From Candidatus Nanohaloarchaea archaeon (GTDB taxonomy: Archaea; Nanohalarchaeota; Nanosalinia; Nanosalinales; Nanosalinaceae), in assembly GCA_042218325.1 (NCBI GenBank), contig JBDGRE010000023.1, positions 1 to 57,283 of the forward strand: a DNA stretch of 57,283 bases. Reading direction: 5' to 3'. The notes below the pieces were generated by a model that saw only the letters and a program-made list of their open reading frames with translations, ran no database searches and was not told the origin of the DNA. Within the stretch, counting starts at the first letter, position 1; the number at the start of each line of letters is the position of its first letter. This document shows, piece after piece, positions 17,896 to 21,666 of this stretch. The position numbers were made by a program, and so were the translations under genes.

Positions 17896-18474
17896 ATGCA
17901 ACTGGAAAAGGCGGCGTTCGGGATGGGCTGCTTCTGGGGGCCAGAGGCGCTGTTCGGCTCTCTGGACGGTGTCATCAGGACCCGCGTGGGGTACGCCGGT
18001 GGAGAAAAAGAGGACCCGACGTACGACGACCTCGGCGGCCACACCGAGACCGTTCTGGTGGAGTACGACCCGGAGAAGATAGGCTACGAGGACCTGCTCG
18101 ACGTGTTCTGGGAGAACCACGATTTCCGCAGCTACCGTAAACCGCAGTACGCGTCGAAGATCTTCTACCTGGACCAGGAGCAGAAGGATATCGCCGAGGT
18201 CATGATACAGAACTATCCGGACGCGGAGACCGAGATACAGCCACTGGAAAACTTTACTGTGGCGGAGGACTACCACCAGAAGTACCGGCTGAGGCACTCT
18301 GGACTCATGGAGCAGTTCGAAGATAGCCGAAACTCCCCCGGAGTTTCTGGGCCTCCAGAAAATCTCCGATTTTCGAACATGAGTGACAAAGAGTTGCGTG
18401 ACTCGCCGCTCGCGGCGAAGGCGAACGCGGTGGCCGCGGGAAAGCTGGATAGAGATGAGCTCGATCCGGACTGA
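17896..18474 (+). CDS. msrA: Peptide-methionine (S)-S-oxide reductase
   Basis: GCFWG, TRVGYAGG, GHTE, AEDYHQKY; carries an apparent ~18-aa insertion. Confidence 0.93.
   Translation: MQLEKAAFGMGCFWGPEALFGSLDGVIRTRVGYAGGEKEDPTYDDLGGHTETVLVEYDPEKIGYEDLLDVFWENHDFRSYRKPQYASKIFYLDQEQKDIAEVMIQNYPDAETEIQPLENFTVAEDYHQKYRLRHSGLMEQFEDSRNSPGVSGPPENLRFSNMSDKELRDSPLAAKANAVAAGKLDRDELDPD
18327..18376 (+). repeat. Twin-hairpin mini-element, in frame in msrA
   Basis: cc GAAACTCC-CCC-GGAGTTTC tgggcctcca GAAAATC-TCC-GATTTTC ga. Confidence 0.8.
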
Positions 18475-18479
18475 ATGAT

Positions 18480-19220
18480 TTACAGCAGTCCCGCCCCGTT
18501 CATCTCCTCCTCGAGCTCGACCAGCGCCCGGGTTTCCTCCCCTGAAAGATCATGCAAGTTGGTCTCGCTATCCCTCTCGCCCGTCAATCTTCCAAGTATC
18601 TCCACCACTACCTCTTCGTCTCTCTTCCCCTGCAGGTCATTGTCGAATTCCCTGTTGGGGAACGCCCTGTAACCGAACTGCATGTCGTGGTTCATCGGTG
18701 CCGTGTAGAACCAGCCGATATTGATGGGCTGGAAACCTTGTTCTCCCCTCTGCGATTCAAGGCCTGCATCCACCGCGGCCGTGGCCTGTAGAGGCATACC
18801 TTCGAGCTGTTCAGCCACCGCCGATTCCGACTGCGCGGAAGTCGAAACACTGTTGACCTGCCAGAACTCCAGATCATATCCGAGCGAGTCAACGACCTGT
18901 TCGATATCTCCAGCAACGTCCTCAAAGCCGGCAACGCCCTCAAGTGTGTAATCCGGGTACACCTGTTCAGTTCTCCTGGACCCTACGTCATCTATACCAG
19001 CCAACGTTACATAGACGGAACCCGAACCCAGCTCCTCCACGATATCCTTGCCTCCATCGACAGGCGGCGATATGAAGCCTGCCTGGTACATGAAATCCTC
19101 GCCGTAGCCATTGGAAGAAAGCTTCCCGGACGCATCCAGCATGTCAGCCTTGACGTCCTCCTTATCGACTGATACACGGAGAGGCTCCGGAACTCGTTCC
19201 CGGGAAACAGTTCTTTTCAC
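18480..19220 (-). CDS. Hypothetical protein
   Basis: 246 aa acidic ORF, no recognisable motif. Confidence 0.65.
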   Translation of the reverse strand: MKRTVSRERVPEPLRVSVDKEDVKADMLDASGKLSSNGYGEDFMYQAGFISPPVDGGKDIVEELGSGSVYVTLAGIDDVGSRRTEQVYPDYTLEGVAGFEDVAGDIEQVVDSLGYDLEFWQVNSVSTSAQSESAVAEQLEGMPLQATAAVDAGLESQRGEQGFQPINIGWFYTAPMNHDMQFGYRAFPNREFDNDLQGKRDEEVVVEILGRLTGERDSETNLHDLSGEETRALVELEEEMNGAGLL

Positions 19221-19231
19221 AGGTCGACGCC

Positions 19232-19510
19232 TCAGGCGCCCGGCCCCTTGAAGCGACCATCTTCCTCGTTATCCGTGTTCCGGAAGACCTCCTCGCGGGA
19301 AAGAGTCTCTTCCGCCTCGTCCTCCCGCGTCTCCGGTTCGACGTCGACAGGGTGGAACGCGGGCTCCACGTCCGAGGTATCTATCTCTTCGAGGGCATCG
19401 AACATCTCAAGTATATCCTCGAAATCCTGCTGGAACTGCTCCGCCTCCTCATCATCGATATCGAGACGTGCATTATCTGCGACCCGTCGGACCTCCTCCA
19501 TATCTACCAC
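19232..19510 (-). CDS. gatC: Asp/Glu-tRNA amidotransferase subunit C
   Basis: EEVRRVADNARL...DTSDVEPAFHP...REDE...GRFKGP. Confidence 0.92.
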   Translation of the reverse strand: MVDMEEVRRVADNARLDIDDEEAEQFQQDFEDILEMFDALEEIDTSDVEPAFHPVDVEPETREDEAEETLSREEVFRNTDNEEDGRFKGPGA

Positions 19511-19586
19511 GCCCCGAGTTTCGCTATCAAGCTTTTTGTATCGCATCCACCGCATGGGAGCAAGAAGCGCCACGAAACGTGAAGTG

Positions 19587-19601
19587 GAAAACATTTATAA
19601 A
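19587..19601 (+). promoter_or_regulatory. Archaeal BRE/TATA box
   Basis: Purine-rich GAAAAC followed by TTTATAAA (19594-19601), ~35 nt before the hairpin array. Confidence 0.55.
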
Positions 19602-19634
19602 CCGGCTCAGGAAATGTTATCTATAAGTTCAGAG

Positions 19635-19760
19635 TGATTGTTTCGCTTTGGGCGGCGAAACAGTCAGACGCGATTCAACTCGTTTGGGCGCGAGTTGAGT
19701 CAGGTTCGAATTGGGCTTCGAACCACGCGAATTGGGCTAACGTGCAAGTTTGGGTAATTG
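19635..19760 (+). ncRNA. Putative structured RNA: five hairpins with UUGGGY loops upstream of ftsZ
   Basis: Hairpins at 19635-19666, 19672-19701, 19703-19724, 19724-19744 and 19745-19760; stems differ, loops are TTGGGC x4 and TTGGGT x1; G-U pairs favour the + strand. Confidence 0.7.
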
Positions 19761-19836
19761 GACTTATCTTCTAAGGTAGAATTACCTATACCGCCTTAAA
19801 AAGGTTAGGTATAGCTATCGCGCAGGACGATACAAA

Positions 19837-20913
19837 ATGGAATCCATCATCGACAACTCACAATCCGGCCAGGAACAGGCAAAAACCTCGAACCTCGACG
19901 ACGTAAAAGATGCTAAGATACTCGTAGTAGGAGTCGGGGGAGCTGGCAACAACCAGGTCACCCGCATCCAGAGAAAAGATGTAGAAGGCGCTGAAACGGT
20001 AGCGATCAATACTGACAAGCAGCACCTTGAGATGTCGTCCGCCGACCGAAAGATACTCATCGGCCGCGACCTGACGAAGGGTCTCGGCGCGGGCGGACAC
20101 CCGCAGAAAGGTGAACGCTCCGCGGAAGAGAACCGCGCAGAACTACGCAAGCTGTTCGCGGAGGCCGACATGGTGTTCGTCACCGCGGGCCTCGGCGGCG
20201 GCACAGGAACAGGTGCGGCACCGGTACTCGCGGAGATCGCGAAGAAGGAAGACTGCATAGTGATAGGAACGGTAACGATGCCGTTCGAGATAGAGGGCGC
20301 ACGGATGAGCAAGGCAGAGGACGGGCTCTACCGGCTGCGGCAGCACGTCGACACCGCCATCGTTATCGAGAACGATAGGCTGCTCGACATCGCAGGCGAC
20401 ATGCCTCTCGACCAGGCGTTCGGCGTCGCCGACGAGCTCATAACGACGATGATAAAGGGCGTCACGGAGACCATCTCCAAGCCGAGCCTCGTCAACCTCG
20501 ACTACGCCGACGTGAAGGCAGTCATGAACGAGGGAGGCGTCGCCGTAGTAGGTTACGGAGAGAGCGACACCAACAACAAGGGAGAAGAGGCGATCCACGA
20601 GGCGATGAGCAATCCGCTGCTCGACGTCGAGTTCTCCGGGGCGAACGGTGCACTCGTACACGTCGCTGGCGGACAGGATCTGACGCTCAACGAGATAAAC
20701 GACGTGGGCCAAACGGTCAAGGACAGACTGGATTCCCAGGCCCAGGTAATCTGGGGCGCCCGCGTGAAGGACGAACTTGAAGGAAAACTCCAGGTAATCT
20801 CCATCGTAACCGGGGTCGAGTCACCGTACATCCTCGGAGACGTGGAGGAAGAGCAGAACACCGAGGTATCAGGCGACGTGAACGACCTCGGACTGGAGGT
20901 AATGGAGCAGTGA
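19837..20913 (+). CDS. ftsZ: Cell division protein FtsZ
   Basis: VGVGGAGNN, GLGGGTGTG tubulin signature, NLDYADV T7 loop, IWGA. Confidence 0.98.
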   Translation: MESIIDNSQSGQEQAKTSNLDDVKDAKILVVGVGGAGNNQVTRIQRKDVEGAETVAINTDKQHLEMSSADRKILIGRDLTKGLGAGGHPQKGERSAEENRAELRKLFAEADMVFVTAGLGGGTGTGAAPVLAEIAKKEDCIVIGTVTMPFEIEGARMSKAEDGLYRLRQHVDTAIVIENDRLLDIAGDMPLDQAFGVADELITTMIKGVTETISKPSLVNLDYADVKAVMNEGGVAVVGYGESDTNNKGEEAIHEAMSNPLLDVEFSGANGALVHVAGGQDLTLNEINDVGQTVKDRLDSQAQVIWGARVKDELEGKLQVISIVTGVESPYILGDVEEEQNTEVSGDVNDLGLEVMEQ

Positions 20914-20940
20914 GAACTGCTTAAAAACGATATTTGAGCA

Positions 20941-21082
20941 GGAGGAGGTCCCAGGGACAACCAACCCAACCCCTTCCCCCCCCGTCCCGGGGCTTCCTCC
21001 ACTCAAATTTATATTCACCGGCAGGACCCTCCGCTTACACCAACCGAACACACCCCTCCCCCCTTACGCGGAGGTCCTCGCC
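20941..21082 (+). ncRNA. Putative structured RNA: two long hairpins with C-rich loops downstream of ftsZ
   Basis: GGAGGAGGTCCC-A-GGGAC/GTCCC-GGGGCTTCCTCC (20941-21000) and GGCAGGACCCTCCGC/GCGGAGGTCCTCGCC (21020-21082); both loops contain ACCAACCSAAC...CCCT(T)CCCCCC. Confidence 0.6.
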
Positions 21083-21159
21083 ATTTCATATTTTATTTCA
21101 CTTTTTATCTATCCGGGCGCGCCGAAAGGTGTAAAACCGTTTTTCTCCTATATGCTCCT

Positions 21160-21666
21160 GTGCCAAGAACTGATTTCTACCTGAAGATCGCAGGCGCGCT
21201 CCTGCTGTCGCTGTCCGCGGCATCCATGATGACGACCGCCACGGGTTACAGGGGAGTAGTAGCCGGTATCGCGGCTGTATCGGCCCTGCTGCTCGTGAAA
21301 TCGGCTGAAAGGTCGTCGAGGAGGCATGGCAGGACGGACAGGATGAAGGTCTCCCTGGTGACCTCGACCGTGATGTACGAGATAGTGCTTCTTGTAGGCG
21401 CGGCGTCGGCGGCGAGCAAGTTCGCCGGTGTGCTCGCGATAGCGGCGGTATCTTTCTCGGAGCTGCTCCACACAGAGGCCATGCAGGAACTCAAGCAGTC
21501 TTTCTCGCCGGACATAGGAAGAGAGGGGCGTATAGTCGTCCTCGCGCTTTCACTGGCCGGCTCCGGTTTCAACAGCTGGGTGCTTTTCTACGGCCTGCTG
21601 TTCATCGCCGTGCTCGCGTTATACGATTCGTTGAGGCTTATACACAGGCTGTCCCGGGAGCTCTAG
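21160..21666 (+). CDS. Membrane protein, possibly a degenerate CDP-alcohol phosphatidyltransferase fold
   Basis: ~6 TMs and a GREGRIVVL C-terminal pattern; no DxxDGxxAR motif. Confidence 0.55.
   Translation: MPRTDFYLKIAGALLLSLSAASMMTTATGYRGVVAGIAAVSALLLVKSAERSSRRHGRTDRMKVSLVTSTVMYEIVLLVGAASAASKFAGVLAIAAVSFSELLHTEAMQELKQSFSPDIGREGRIVVLALSLAGSGFNSWVLFYGLLFIAVLALYDSLRLIHRLSREL

Follow-up and report, generated by a model that had tools for sequence, protein, structure and literature searches.

Two conserved C-loop hairpins downstream of ftsZ as a candidate RNA control element in Nanohaloarchaeota

Two adjacent plus-strand hairpins with large C-rich loops follow an ftsZ gene of the Nanohaloarchaeota, and together they look like a real, undescribed RNA control element. 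We judge it somewhat probable that the hairpins form the RNA domain at the 3' terminus of the ftsZ unit in this phylum, serving as scaffolds that show a C motif to a trans-acting factor. This reading builds on the structure, strand, conservation, rarity and second locus of the element, all of which were observed. A new finding, unforeseen in the preliminary description of this DNA, is that the C motif and the U-tract behind it are shared with the 3' end of a gene for a small ribbon-helix-helix (RHH) protein. The Nanohaloarchaeota are symbionts of very small size whose genomes, about 1 Mb long, have few recognizable regulators. The window, meaning the whole stretch of 57,283 nt analysed here, belongs to a Nanohaloarchaeota MAG of 1.07 Mb (G000); the 17 sequencing runs listed for the stretch are all DNA, the best being a salt-lake metagenome.

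Structure and setting of the hairpins

The ftsZ product matched the NCBIfam model TIGR00065 FtsZ with 403 bits (cut-off 295), and its orthologues across the phylum are 72-92% identical; the second paralogue, at G000:C1:14718-15728, is 53% identical. Sequence inspection and RNAfold confirmed the two plus-strand hairpins with large C-rich loops 3' of ftsZ (Table 1). Three further details of the preliminary description were likewise borne out by the sequence, namely the ACCAACC(C/G)AAC stretch common to both loops, the ACCCAA within loop 1, and the box CTTAAAAA at 20920-20927 that is found again before ftsZ at 19795-19802. Folding of 20914-21110 on the plus strand returned exactly the two hairpins (-61.8 kcal/mol, z = -7.2), and none of the 200 dinucleotide shuffles used for scoring was as good, compared with z = -0.9 and 36/200 shuffles for the minus strand of the same segment. 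In many relatives the loop of hairpin 2 contains an additional inner hairpin.

Table 1. Features of the ftsZ locus and of the second C-motif locus (positions in the window unless a contig is named).
Feature	Position	Strand	Description
Distal TATA box	19594-19601	+	TTTATAAA, inside AACATTTATAAAC; upstream of G-loop array
Upstream hairpin array	19635-19766	+	UUGGGC loops (one UUGGGU); stems of 13, 12 and 8 bp
Proximal hairpin	19783-19813	+	CCUAUACC...GGUAUAG; TATA-like CUUAAAAA in loop; about 35 nt before ftsZ AUG
ftsZ CDS	19837-20913	+	ORF of 358 aa; the genome has a second paralogue
A/U-rich box	20920-20936	+	CTTAAAAACGATATTTG; TATA-like as DNA; precedes hairpin 1
Hairpin 1	20941-21000	+	17-bp stem, one bulge, two G-U pairs, 25-nt loop
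Hairpin 1, 5' arm	20941-20958	+	GGAGGAGGTCCCAGGGAC
Hairpin 1, loop	20959-20983	+	holds CCCCTTCCCCCCCC at 20970-20983
C motif 1	20970-20983	+	CCCCUUCCCCCCCC; unpaired in minimum-energy fold
Hairpin 1, 3' arm	20984-21000	+	
A/U-rich spacer between hairpins	21001-21019	+	ACUCAAAUUUAUAUUCACC; AUAUU motif again before hairpin 2
Hairpin 2	21020-21082	+	14-bp stem, 33-nt loop
Hairpin 2, 5' arm	21020-21034	+	
Hairpin 2, loop	21035-21067	+	holds CCCCTCCCCCC at 21053-21063
C motif 2	21053-21063	+	CCCCUCCCCCC; unpaired, 3' side of loop
Hairpin 2, 3' arm	21068-21082	+	
U-rich tract	21083-21108	+	AUUUCAUAUUUUAUUUCACUUUUUAUC; directly after hairpin 2
48-aa RHH gene	G000:C32:26539-26682	-	followed downstream by CUUCCCCCCUCCCCUCAUUUCCUUUUUCUU

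The A/U-rich sequence at the hairpins is also preserved. Read as RNA, the box contributes an (A)UAUU(A) core, which is conserved and lies at the base of the hairpin; the constant part of the box in relatives is ATATT/ATGTT, 2-6 nt before the stem, and the spacer is kept as AAACCUAUAUUUCAAC or UUUAUAUUCACC. The layout resembles that of an intrinsic terminator, with a GC-rich hairpin and then immediately a U-rich tract, and it is the same in relatives, where there is always a U/T-rich tract behind the last hairpin. By analogy with archaeal transcription termination, which uses a U-tract signal (PMC8716108), the tract at 21083-21108 is likely a termination signal. The next gene lies on the same strand, about 78 nt further on, and has its own TATA. 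Since the element is kept at loci where the downstream gene differs (L007, L021, L027, L085), it is tied to ftsZ and not to the next gene.

Conservation, rarity and a second locus

The non-chance nature of the element is shown mainly by its conservation. In the initial set of 24 same-family ftsZ loci, every locus has one or two motif-bearing hairpins, whose stem sequences differ (for example, GGAGGAGGUCCCAGGGAC, UUUUCCAAGCCAAAAAGCAAAAA and GAGGCCUUCA), and the loop motif is nearly fixed within the family, with the consensus ACACUCCCCUCCCCCC. Other families of the phylum have C5-C10 loop variants and up to four adjacent hairpins. A crude detector found at least one C-loop hairpin in 44/45 same-family and 11/12 other-family unique loci. 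Among 40 motif-bearing loci, the median z was -5.7 on the plus strand versus -2.6 on the minus strand, the plus strand being lower in 38, and values below -3 were reached in 36 loci on the plus strand and 12 on the minus strand. In every one of the 40, no less than 80% of the C motif was unpaired, and in 31 none of it was paired. The longest contiguous helix enclosing the motif had a median of 9 bp, whereas shuffled flanks gave a mean of 6.45, and it exceeded its own 95th percentile in 40 of 71 motif instances.

The evidence for the stems is per-locus folding with shuffles and not a covariation statistic, because hairpins of variable length misalign; MAFFT alignments of the whole hairpins, the terminal hairpin, the two-hairpin region and trims to 7-bp arms were all out of structural register. 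On the terminal-hairpin alignment, RNAalifold gave only a 4-bp pairing of the motif CCUC with GGAGG of the 3' arm, which is possibly an alternative fold. ACACU precedes the C motif in 26/66 instances, and this conserved flank is not self-complementary, which fits a sequence-specific reading of the motif.

C runs of six or more are rare in G000 (45 on one strand and 44 on the other, in 1.07 Mb), and two of them sit 75 nt apart at the ftsZ hairpins. A BLAST search with the 171-nt hairpin stretch found no second copy in G000, and the listing of C runs shows no other site resembling the hairpins. The pattern CCCYTCCCCC has 0-7 matches per strand per genome, near its reversed control; the complete genomes G015, G018 and G020 each have only two matches, both after ftsZ. 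An Rfam 15 cmscan of 19200-21400 with E up to 10 yielded no credible family, as the best match on the hairpins, mir-1990, reached 17.3 bits (E = 1.5; gathering score 63), and literature searches aimed at the element found no paper describing it. A conserved 266-nt intergenic sRNA has been reported from Nanohaloarchaea (PMC7002113, Fig. S6A, Data Set S1), and it could be one of these elements.

A C-run-U-C-run motif with a U-tract also stands at the 3' end of the conserved RHH gene, 3-72 nt past the stop codon, in 20/21 loci, and five of the CCCYTCCCCC matches outside ftsZ (in G004, G007, G014, G022 and G023) are exactly the sites at this gene. The gene is unlinked to ftsZ and has no G-loop leader, and its motif mostly lies outside any hairpin (the median helix is 5.5 bp there, n = 20, versus 9 bp at ftsZ, n = 71). 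This reuse suggests that the C motif does the work and that the hairpins at ftsZ are a scaffold for its display. The occurrence of the motif at a second gene that lacks a G-loop leader also argues for a trans-acting reader over purely intramolecular closure. The RHH product matched Pfam RHH_1 with E = 0.0095, below the cut-off, and its homologues carry PF23434. Its identification as CdrS (NCBIfam NF058555) was not supported, at 18.3 and 16.3 bits versus a cut-off of 100; the 16.3-bit match to this model is the sole one in the genome, and weak matches also occur in 8/14 control genomes.

Transcription with ftsZ, binding of a factor and an effect of that binding are the proposed steps of the scaffold reading. 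The hairpins would sit in the 3' UTR of ftsZ, and an sRNA of about 150 nt may in addition arise from them, by release or by separate synthesis. The GC-rich hairpin stems would keep the C motif (C4-5, U or UU, C5-10) single-stranded, in an open loop immediately ahead of the U-tract. The motif would then be the recognition site for a putative factor acting in trans, either a protein that reads poly(C) or an RNA rich in G, and this factor would determine how the 3' end of the message forms, how stable the message is or how it is translated. With the same motif and U-tract ending the mRNA of the RHH regulator, ftsZ and the RHH gene would come under common control, as read from just two motif-sharing loci.

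Possible pairing with the upstream G-loop array

The preliminary description proposed a two-part RNA control system around ftsZ, in which the C-loops may kiss the G-loops of hairpins upstream of the gene. The two-part arrangement is phylum-wide, since 52/57 unique loci have at least two upstream G-loop hairpins and at least one downstream C-loop hairpin by the crude detector, and the refuting case of relatives that lose the downstream hairpins while keeping the upstream array does not recur as a pattern. The upstream hairpins are kept in relatives with differing stems.

It is possible, if doubtful, that the C-rich loops kiss the GGG of the leader UUGGGC hexaloops multivalently, giving closure or multimerisation of the mRNA or an sRNA/anti-sRNA pair; in trans, the array might capture the RHH mRNA by its C-rich 3' end as well. 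Both arrays flank ftsZ throughout the phylum, C-loop hairpins occur upstream in 0/57 loci, and the G and C motifs are both unpaired in loops. UUGGGC hexaloops on stems of at least 8 bp are restricted in G000 to the region before ftsZ, and the genome has no further complement of the 11-nt C motif besides the locus's own opposite strand. We know of no defined loop motifs or hairpin arrays in the haloarchaeal work on 5'-UTR/3'-UTR interplay. What that work describes is translational control that needs both mRNA ends together (PMC2636863); it concerns an archaeon with a high-salt cytoplasm and offers a published frame for closure, although the phylum and the genes are others and the interaction here is only proposed.

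The loop sequences agree less well with such pairing. The ACCCAA:UUGGGU complementarity noted earlier is not conserved, with CCCAA after the C motif in only 7/45 same-family loci; UU follows the motif in 39/66 instances. Compensatory loop changes did not appear either, as the G-loops read GUGGGAC, UGGGA or UUGGCG in some lineages and the C-loops show no matching change. The conserved neighbours of GGG (UU..C) and those of the C runs (ACACU.. and ..UU) do not pair, so that the part both complementary and conserved is GGG:CCC only. Because the flanking match is unconserved and the loops do not co-vary, only this invariant core could pair, and given its invariance covariation neither confirms nor refutes the pairing. 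The preliminary description is thus partly supported: it holds for the hairpins as conserved, strand-specific RNA structure tied to ftsZ and for the two-part arrangement, but not for the ACCCAA:UUGGGU match. The numbers of G- and C-hairpins are uncorrelated (rho 0.02), and the RHH gene has the C motif without a G-loop leader.

The array may lie outside the ftsZ mRNA, as the proximal TATA sits between array and gene. The distal TATA box is kept in nearly all relatives; ahead of leaderless starts, TTTATA has its peak at -32 to -30. The proximal hairpin at 19783-19813 shows a compensatory A-U to G-C change in L005 and L017.

An extended RNA-RNA circuit is rather unlikely in our estimate. Four to six leader GGG hexaloops would bind the ftsZ 3' C-loops and the RHH mRNA tail in trans, closing or bundling the mRNAs and setting the amount of FtsZ through many short G-C kissing contacts, which the molar-salt cytoplasm would stabilise. 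We know of no multivalent loop-loop mRNA closure in any archaeon, and literature searches for an archaeal case found none. Two other ideas were rejected: the G-loops as anticodon-loop mimics, since they are hexaloops and not 7-nt loops, and the arrays as a replication origin or operator, since the arms vary between repeats and the loop is constant.

Other readings, known systems and significance

We consider it unlikely that the hairpins are an independent sRNA gene, or two in tandem, with its own promoter, a U-tract terminator and C-loops acting on other mRNAs as anti-Shine-Dalgarno-like seeds, in the manner of bacterial sRNAs with UCCC or CCUCCUCCC loops. The box CTTAAAAA before hairpin 1 does agree with the TATA consensus of G000 itself (TTTAAAA; its TTAAAA begins at -29/-30 relative to leaderless ATGs and is also found before tRNA genes), and a second A/U box precedes hairpin 2. 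At least eight relatives (including L005, L006, L014, L019, L023, L044, L045 and L047) have, after the ftsZ stop and ahead of the element, one to four terminator-like generic hairpins that read CGAAAAUC...GAUUUUC(G/U). A promoter-like box together with such interposed hairpins would fit an ftsZ transcript that terminates earlier and a separate sRNA gene. However, a TATA spacing of 29-30 nt puts the start at about 20950-20953, inside the 5' arm, which would destroy most of the stem although its pairing is conserved. The A-run of the box is absent in some relatives, the element begins within 5 nt of the stop codon in L039, L043, L044 and L045, and it is single-copy and always joined to ftsZ.

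As to the seeds, CCUCC and UCCC lie inside the unpaired motif and are complementary to the Shine-Dalgarno (SD) core GGAGG, and SD-like words are enriched about threefold at -16 to -9 before starts. Elsewhere in G000, neither the loop 2 core GGGGGGAGGGG (11 nt) nor the loop 1 motif has an exact complement. Thirteen other sites lie within one mismatch of the loop 2 core, including C32:26492 in the RHH tail. One GGGGAGGGG is an SD-like site ahead of a 100-aa ORF on G000:C18, where GGGGAGGGGAUC stands 7 nt upstream of the frame; an Rfam search of this C18 site gave no match. Against a seed function, an anti-SD seed would need less than the runs of 5-10 C that flank the U on either side.

A role purely as a strong terminator or 3'-end protector, stopping read-through and blocking 3' exonucleases with C-loops that are incidental or merely open the loop, is quite improbable. 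The GC-rich hairpins do stand immediately ahead of a U-rich tract, a known archaeal termination signal (PMC8716108), with the next gene and its own TATA close behind on the same strand. Yet this role leaves unexplained a loop sequence of 11-16 nt that is near-invariant across the phylum while the stems drift, as well as the hairpin-less reuse at the RHH gene, and the common 3' hairpin of the genome is a different one (CGAAAAUC...GAUUUUCU, 13 copies). A small proline-rich ORF (20934-21134) or an i-motif/G-quadruplex DNA element can be set aside almost entirely: a 66-aa ORF spans the region, some stop-free plus-strand frame links the motifs in 20/21 two-motif loci and loop 1 has four G tracts on the minus strand, but the element is not coding because the phase between motifs is unkept (spacing of 0, 1 and 2 mod 3 in 3, 9 and 9 of 21 loci), stop-free frames are expected of C-rich sequence (the open frame among six found in 42/45 loci is uninformative on coding in C/G-rich sequence), arms paired with G-U favour plus-strand RNA, and the consensus motif has two C tracts only.

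Several known systems resemble the element in part. The cuckoo/RSs0680 (CcsR) RNAs of Alphaproteobacteria, as described in PMC4615179, have two to four adjacent hairpins with variable stems and one C-rich motif per loop, an architecture that has also been a point in favour of an sRNA gene. Adjacent variable-stem hairpins are found here too, but the cuckoo/CcsR loop motif CCUCCUCCC is replaced by C4-5 U(U) C5-10, and those RNAs are presented as bacterial, Hfq-linked, multicopy and spread over several genomic neighbourhoods (PMC4615179). The ftsZ element, in contrast, is archaeal and single-copy, always follows ftsZ and has the G-loop array upstream. Unpaired C-rich loop motifs are shared as well with the UCCC-loop sRNAs of Firmicutes, RNAIII and RsaA-K (PMC2790875) and LhrC (PMC4132741), where they have been proposed to bind Shine-Dalgarno regions; these sRNAs are described as trans-acting and bacterial, and their UCCC seeds are short, whereas the ftsZ element has much longer C runs and is joined to one gene.

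Eukaryotic poly(C)-binding KH proteins read C-rich stability elements in 3' UTRs, and the C-rich stretch near the transcript 3' end is similar to their sites, with binding here only proposed. To our knowledge, Archaea lack Rho. The unpaired stretch of RNA, rich in C and poor in G, near the 3' end, beside a U-tract, is nonetheless like a Rho rut site as outlined in PMC13675443, the available text of which names no C-rich archaeal signal. The KH domains of archaeal aCPSF1/FttA act on terminator U-tracts, and aCPSF1 is described as reading U, not C (PMC8716108).

The element is a candidate new RNA family with clear signatures for building a covariance model and for pull-downs of the binding factor. 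A phylum-wide, single-copy structured RNA at ftsZ, a motif shared with an RHH gene and a leader G-loop array together provide a testable handle on the control of archaeal division, and specifically on the post-transcriptional control of cell division in symbionts with few regulators.

Hairpins with C-rich loops downstream of ftsZ

A protein search with FtsZ from the genome under study (G000; 1.07 Mb in 35 contigs, 55% G+C; the window is its contig C16) retrieved relatives among Nanohaloarchaea, Nanohalobium, and Nanosalina records, and the best DNA match to the stretch was a salt-lake metagenome. The + strand 3' of ftsZ folded into precisely two hairpins (z = -7.2; 0 of 200 shuffles equally good), each with an unpaired C run-U-C run, the C motif, in its loop. 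The opposite (-) strand gave no such fold (z = -0.9), and the G-U pairs of stem 1 are consistent with a + strand RNA. No Rfam family matched the hairpins, and a second copy of the hairpin region was not found in G000.

Features at the ftsZ locus and at the second, ribbon-helix-helix (RHH) locus (window positions unless a contig is named)
Feature	Position	Strand	Remarks
Conserved distal TATA box, AACATTTATAAAC	19594-19601		before ftsZ
ftsZ	19837-20913	+	403 bits on TIGR00065
CTTAAAAACGATATTTG	20920-20936	+	first after ftsZ stop
Hairpin 1	20941-21000	+	after CTTAAAAACGATATTTG
C motif in loop 1, CCCCTTCCCCCCCC	20970-20983	+	
A/U-rich spacer with TTTATATT	between hairpins 1 and 2	+	
Hairpin 2	21020-21082	+	after the A/U-rich spacer
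C motif in loop 2, CCCCTCCCCCC	21053-21063	+	
U-rich tract	21083-21108	+	directly after hairpin 2
Next gene, 168-aa protein	start 21160		no family match
Conserved 48-aa RHH gene and tail	G000:C32:26494-26682 (L103/L104)	-	

Loci of ftsZ gathered from 40 relatives, named records, and 70 genomes of the phylum gave 57 unique loci. In the first set, one or two hairpins with C-motif loops followed ftsZ at all 24 same-family loci, on stems of 6-30 bp with unrelated sequences. Folding, strand bias, and this 24/24 occurrence bear out the hairpins of the preliminary description as a real, conserved RNA element. Across 40 motif-bearing loci the median z was -5.7 on the + strand (below -3 in 36) and -2.6 on the - strand (below -3 in 12). 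Minimum-energy folds left the C motif fully unpaired at 31 of these loci and at least 80% unpaired at all 40, and the enclosing helix exceeded its own 95th percentile, against shuffled 5' flanks, in 40 of 71 motif instances. Support for the stems is from folding and shuffles, with no column-wise covariation statistic, because the MAFFT alignments were out of structural register.

The family consensus of the motif is ACACUCCCCUCCCCCC, followed by UU in most instances; in the remaining four families of the phylum the motifs are shorter, e.g., UUCCCCCACA, and two to four hairpins carry them. Hairpin 2 contains an additional inner hairpin in many relatives, the C motif then lying 3' in the loop and adjoining the closing strand. 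At every locus inspected, the final hairpin gives way to a T-rich tract. The weakest version among the 57 loci is that of L031 and L093 (genus g30), where ftsZ is followed by an inserted short ORF-like stretch and a degenerate C motif, CCCCUCUC.

The element remains with ftsZ at loci whose downstream gene is another. The pattern CCCYTCCCCC occurs 0-7 times per strand per genome, a rarity equal to that of its reversed control, and in three complete genomes its sole two matches are the sites 3' of ftsZ. Neither C runs of six or more nor G-loop hairpins lie within 2 kb of the second ftsZ paralogue (C1:14718-15728).

In G000, promoters consist of a TTTAAAA box whose first base lies 29-30 nt ahead of leaderless AUGs; such boxes also precede tRNA genes. 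The box CTTAAAAAC at 20920 conforms to this consensus and predicts a start at about 20950-20953, which would fall within the 5' arm of the first hairpin. The hairpins may thus belong to the ftsZ 3' UTR or to a separate RNA; since the pairing of both arms is conserved, some transcripts at least must begin 5' of hairpin 1. What stays constant among relatives is an ATATT/ATGTT core at the hairpin base, and not the A run. The element starts 5 nt or less from the ftsZ stop codon in some relatives, and in at least eight relatives one to four generic CGAAAAUC...GAUUUUC(G/U) hairpins intervene. The generic form, CGAAAAUC-N3-7-GAUUUUCU, has 13 copies in G000, including window 18357-18375 (- strand). 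Such hairpins often stand directly after stop codons or tRNA genes, and are probably a common terminator-like element of these genomes.

The C motif at a ribbon-helix-helix gene

A search for complements of the C motif found GAGGGGAGGGGGG at G000:C32:26492, beside an RHH gene whose sense strand carries CUUCCCCCCUCCCCUCAUUUCCUUUUUCUU directly 3' of the stop. Of the 24 same-family genomes searched, 18 have this gene conserved, and the C motif with a U-tract lies 3-72 nt after its stop in 20 of 21 loci; the convergent neighbour varies, so the motif belongs with the RHH gene. Five of the non-ftsZ matches of the CCCYTCCCCC search are RHH-gene sites. In G000, only the ftsZ and RHH sites combine four or more Cs on either side of U with a following 7/8-T tract; five weaker C-rich matches have tracts of 6/8 T.

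The enclosing helix has a median of 5.5 bp at RHH sites versus 9 bp at ftsZ, and the RHH motif is usually without a hairpin. One CGAAAAUC-type hairpin separates the RHH stop from the C motif in two relatives (G001 and G003). The RHH leader is short and without G-loops, and the repeated words TAATACA, GTATTAC, and GTAGTAC upstream of the gene are operator-like in appearance. The protein is the sole CdrS-model match in G000, at 16-18 bits, far below the cut-off of 100, and is labelled here an RHH regulator, no finer.

The upstream array and proposed loop pairing

Four to six hairpins with UUGGGC hexaloops, the G-loop array, begin about 40 nt past the distal TATA box (window 19594-19836), on stems that vary from repeat to repeat and genome to genome. 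They are followed by GUUCUAAGGUAGAAUUACC and a conserved hairpin, about 35 nt before the ftsZ AUG, with TATA-like CUUAAAAA in its loop. Throughout the phylum the same layout is kept; the region is an RNA of its own or else a long structured leader. UUGGGC-hexaloop hairpins on stems of at least 8 bp occur in G000 only ahead of ftsZ. As listed, the divergent neighbour, gatC (window 19232-19594, - strand; Pfam PF02686, E = 8.5e-18), has an ATG that overlaps the distal TATA, so translation probably begins at a more internal position. At L010, L017, L018, L019, L022, and other loci, the word (G)TGAACAG(T) recurs several times in both orientations, 40-150 nt 5' of the distal TATA, and could be bound by a transcription factor. 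The window lacks these copies; there, gatC directly adjoins the promoter.

The two-part system proposed around ftsZ holds as an arrangement, both arrays being present at 52 of 57 loci, while pairing between them gained little support. The ACCCAA:UUGGGU complementarity of the window is fortuitous (7 of 45 loci have CCCAA after a motif), and matching loop changes were not seen: lineages with GUGGGAC, UGGGA, or UUGGCG retain the usual C motif. Complementarity between G and C loops is restricted to GGG:CCC, and the numbers of G and C hairpins are uncorrelated across loci (rho 0.02). This core is invariant, so covariation can neither support nor exclude pairing. Kissing of array RNA with the C motif, neither confirmed nor excluded, is a less likely reading; if the array RNA were the reader, it would reach ftsZ in cis and the RHH mRNA in trans.

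Related systems and proposed function

The nearest published architecture is that of the cuckoo/CcsR RNAs, described in the available text of PMC4615179 as two to four hairpins with CCUCCUCCC loops and variable stems, co-transcribed with the upstream gene; judged by that text, the ftsZ element lacks the defining loop motif and belongs to a different domain of life. The UCCC-loop sRNAs of Firmicutes (available parts of PMC2790875 and PMC4132741) and haloarchaeal 5'/3'-UTR interplay (likewise PMC2636863) are functional analogies, no more. Literature searches on Nanohaloarchaeota ftsZ/UTR and nanohaloarchaeal non-coding RNA turned up no account of the element; a conserved 266-nt nanohaloarchaeal sRNA mentioned in PMC7002113 may correspond to such an element.

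An sRNA with anti-Shine-Dalgarno seeds, also suggested initially, seems unlikely. In its favour, GGGGAGGGGAUC at G000:C18:12915-12926 (L126:916-927) combines a nearly perfect extended Shine-Dalgarno with 9 nt of complementarity to the C motif. It sits 7 nt ahead of a 100-aa ORF without a Pfam match, which directly follows a beta-CASP/RMMBL (aCPSF-like) ribonuclease gene. A plain terminator or protector is improbable. A DNA-level or coding feature can practically be set aside; the two motifs do not keep a constant phase among loci, so the element does not code for protein.

The hairpins form a real, conserved RNA element of the C-rich-loop hairpin type without an earlier account, and its mechanism is a proposal. 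As the simplest account, we rather favour a 3'-terminal RNA module in which the unpaired C motif by the U-tract works through a trans-acting factor common to ftsZ and the RHH gene. The ftsZ hairpins would display the motif to this reader, either a protein or the array RNA; a conserved flank that is non-complementary, and the motif's use where RNA is unstructured, would fit a protein.
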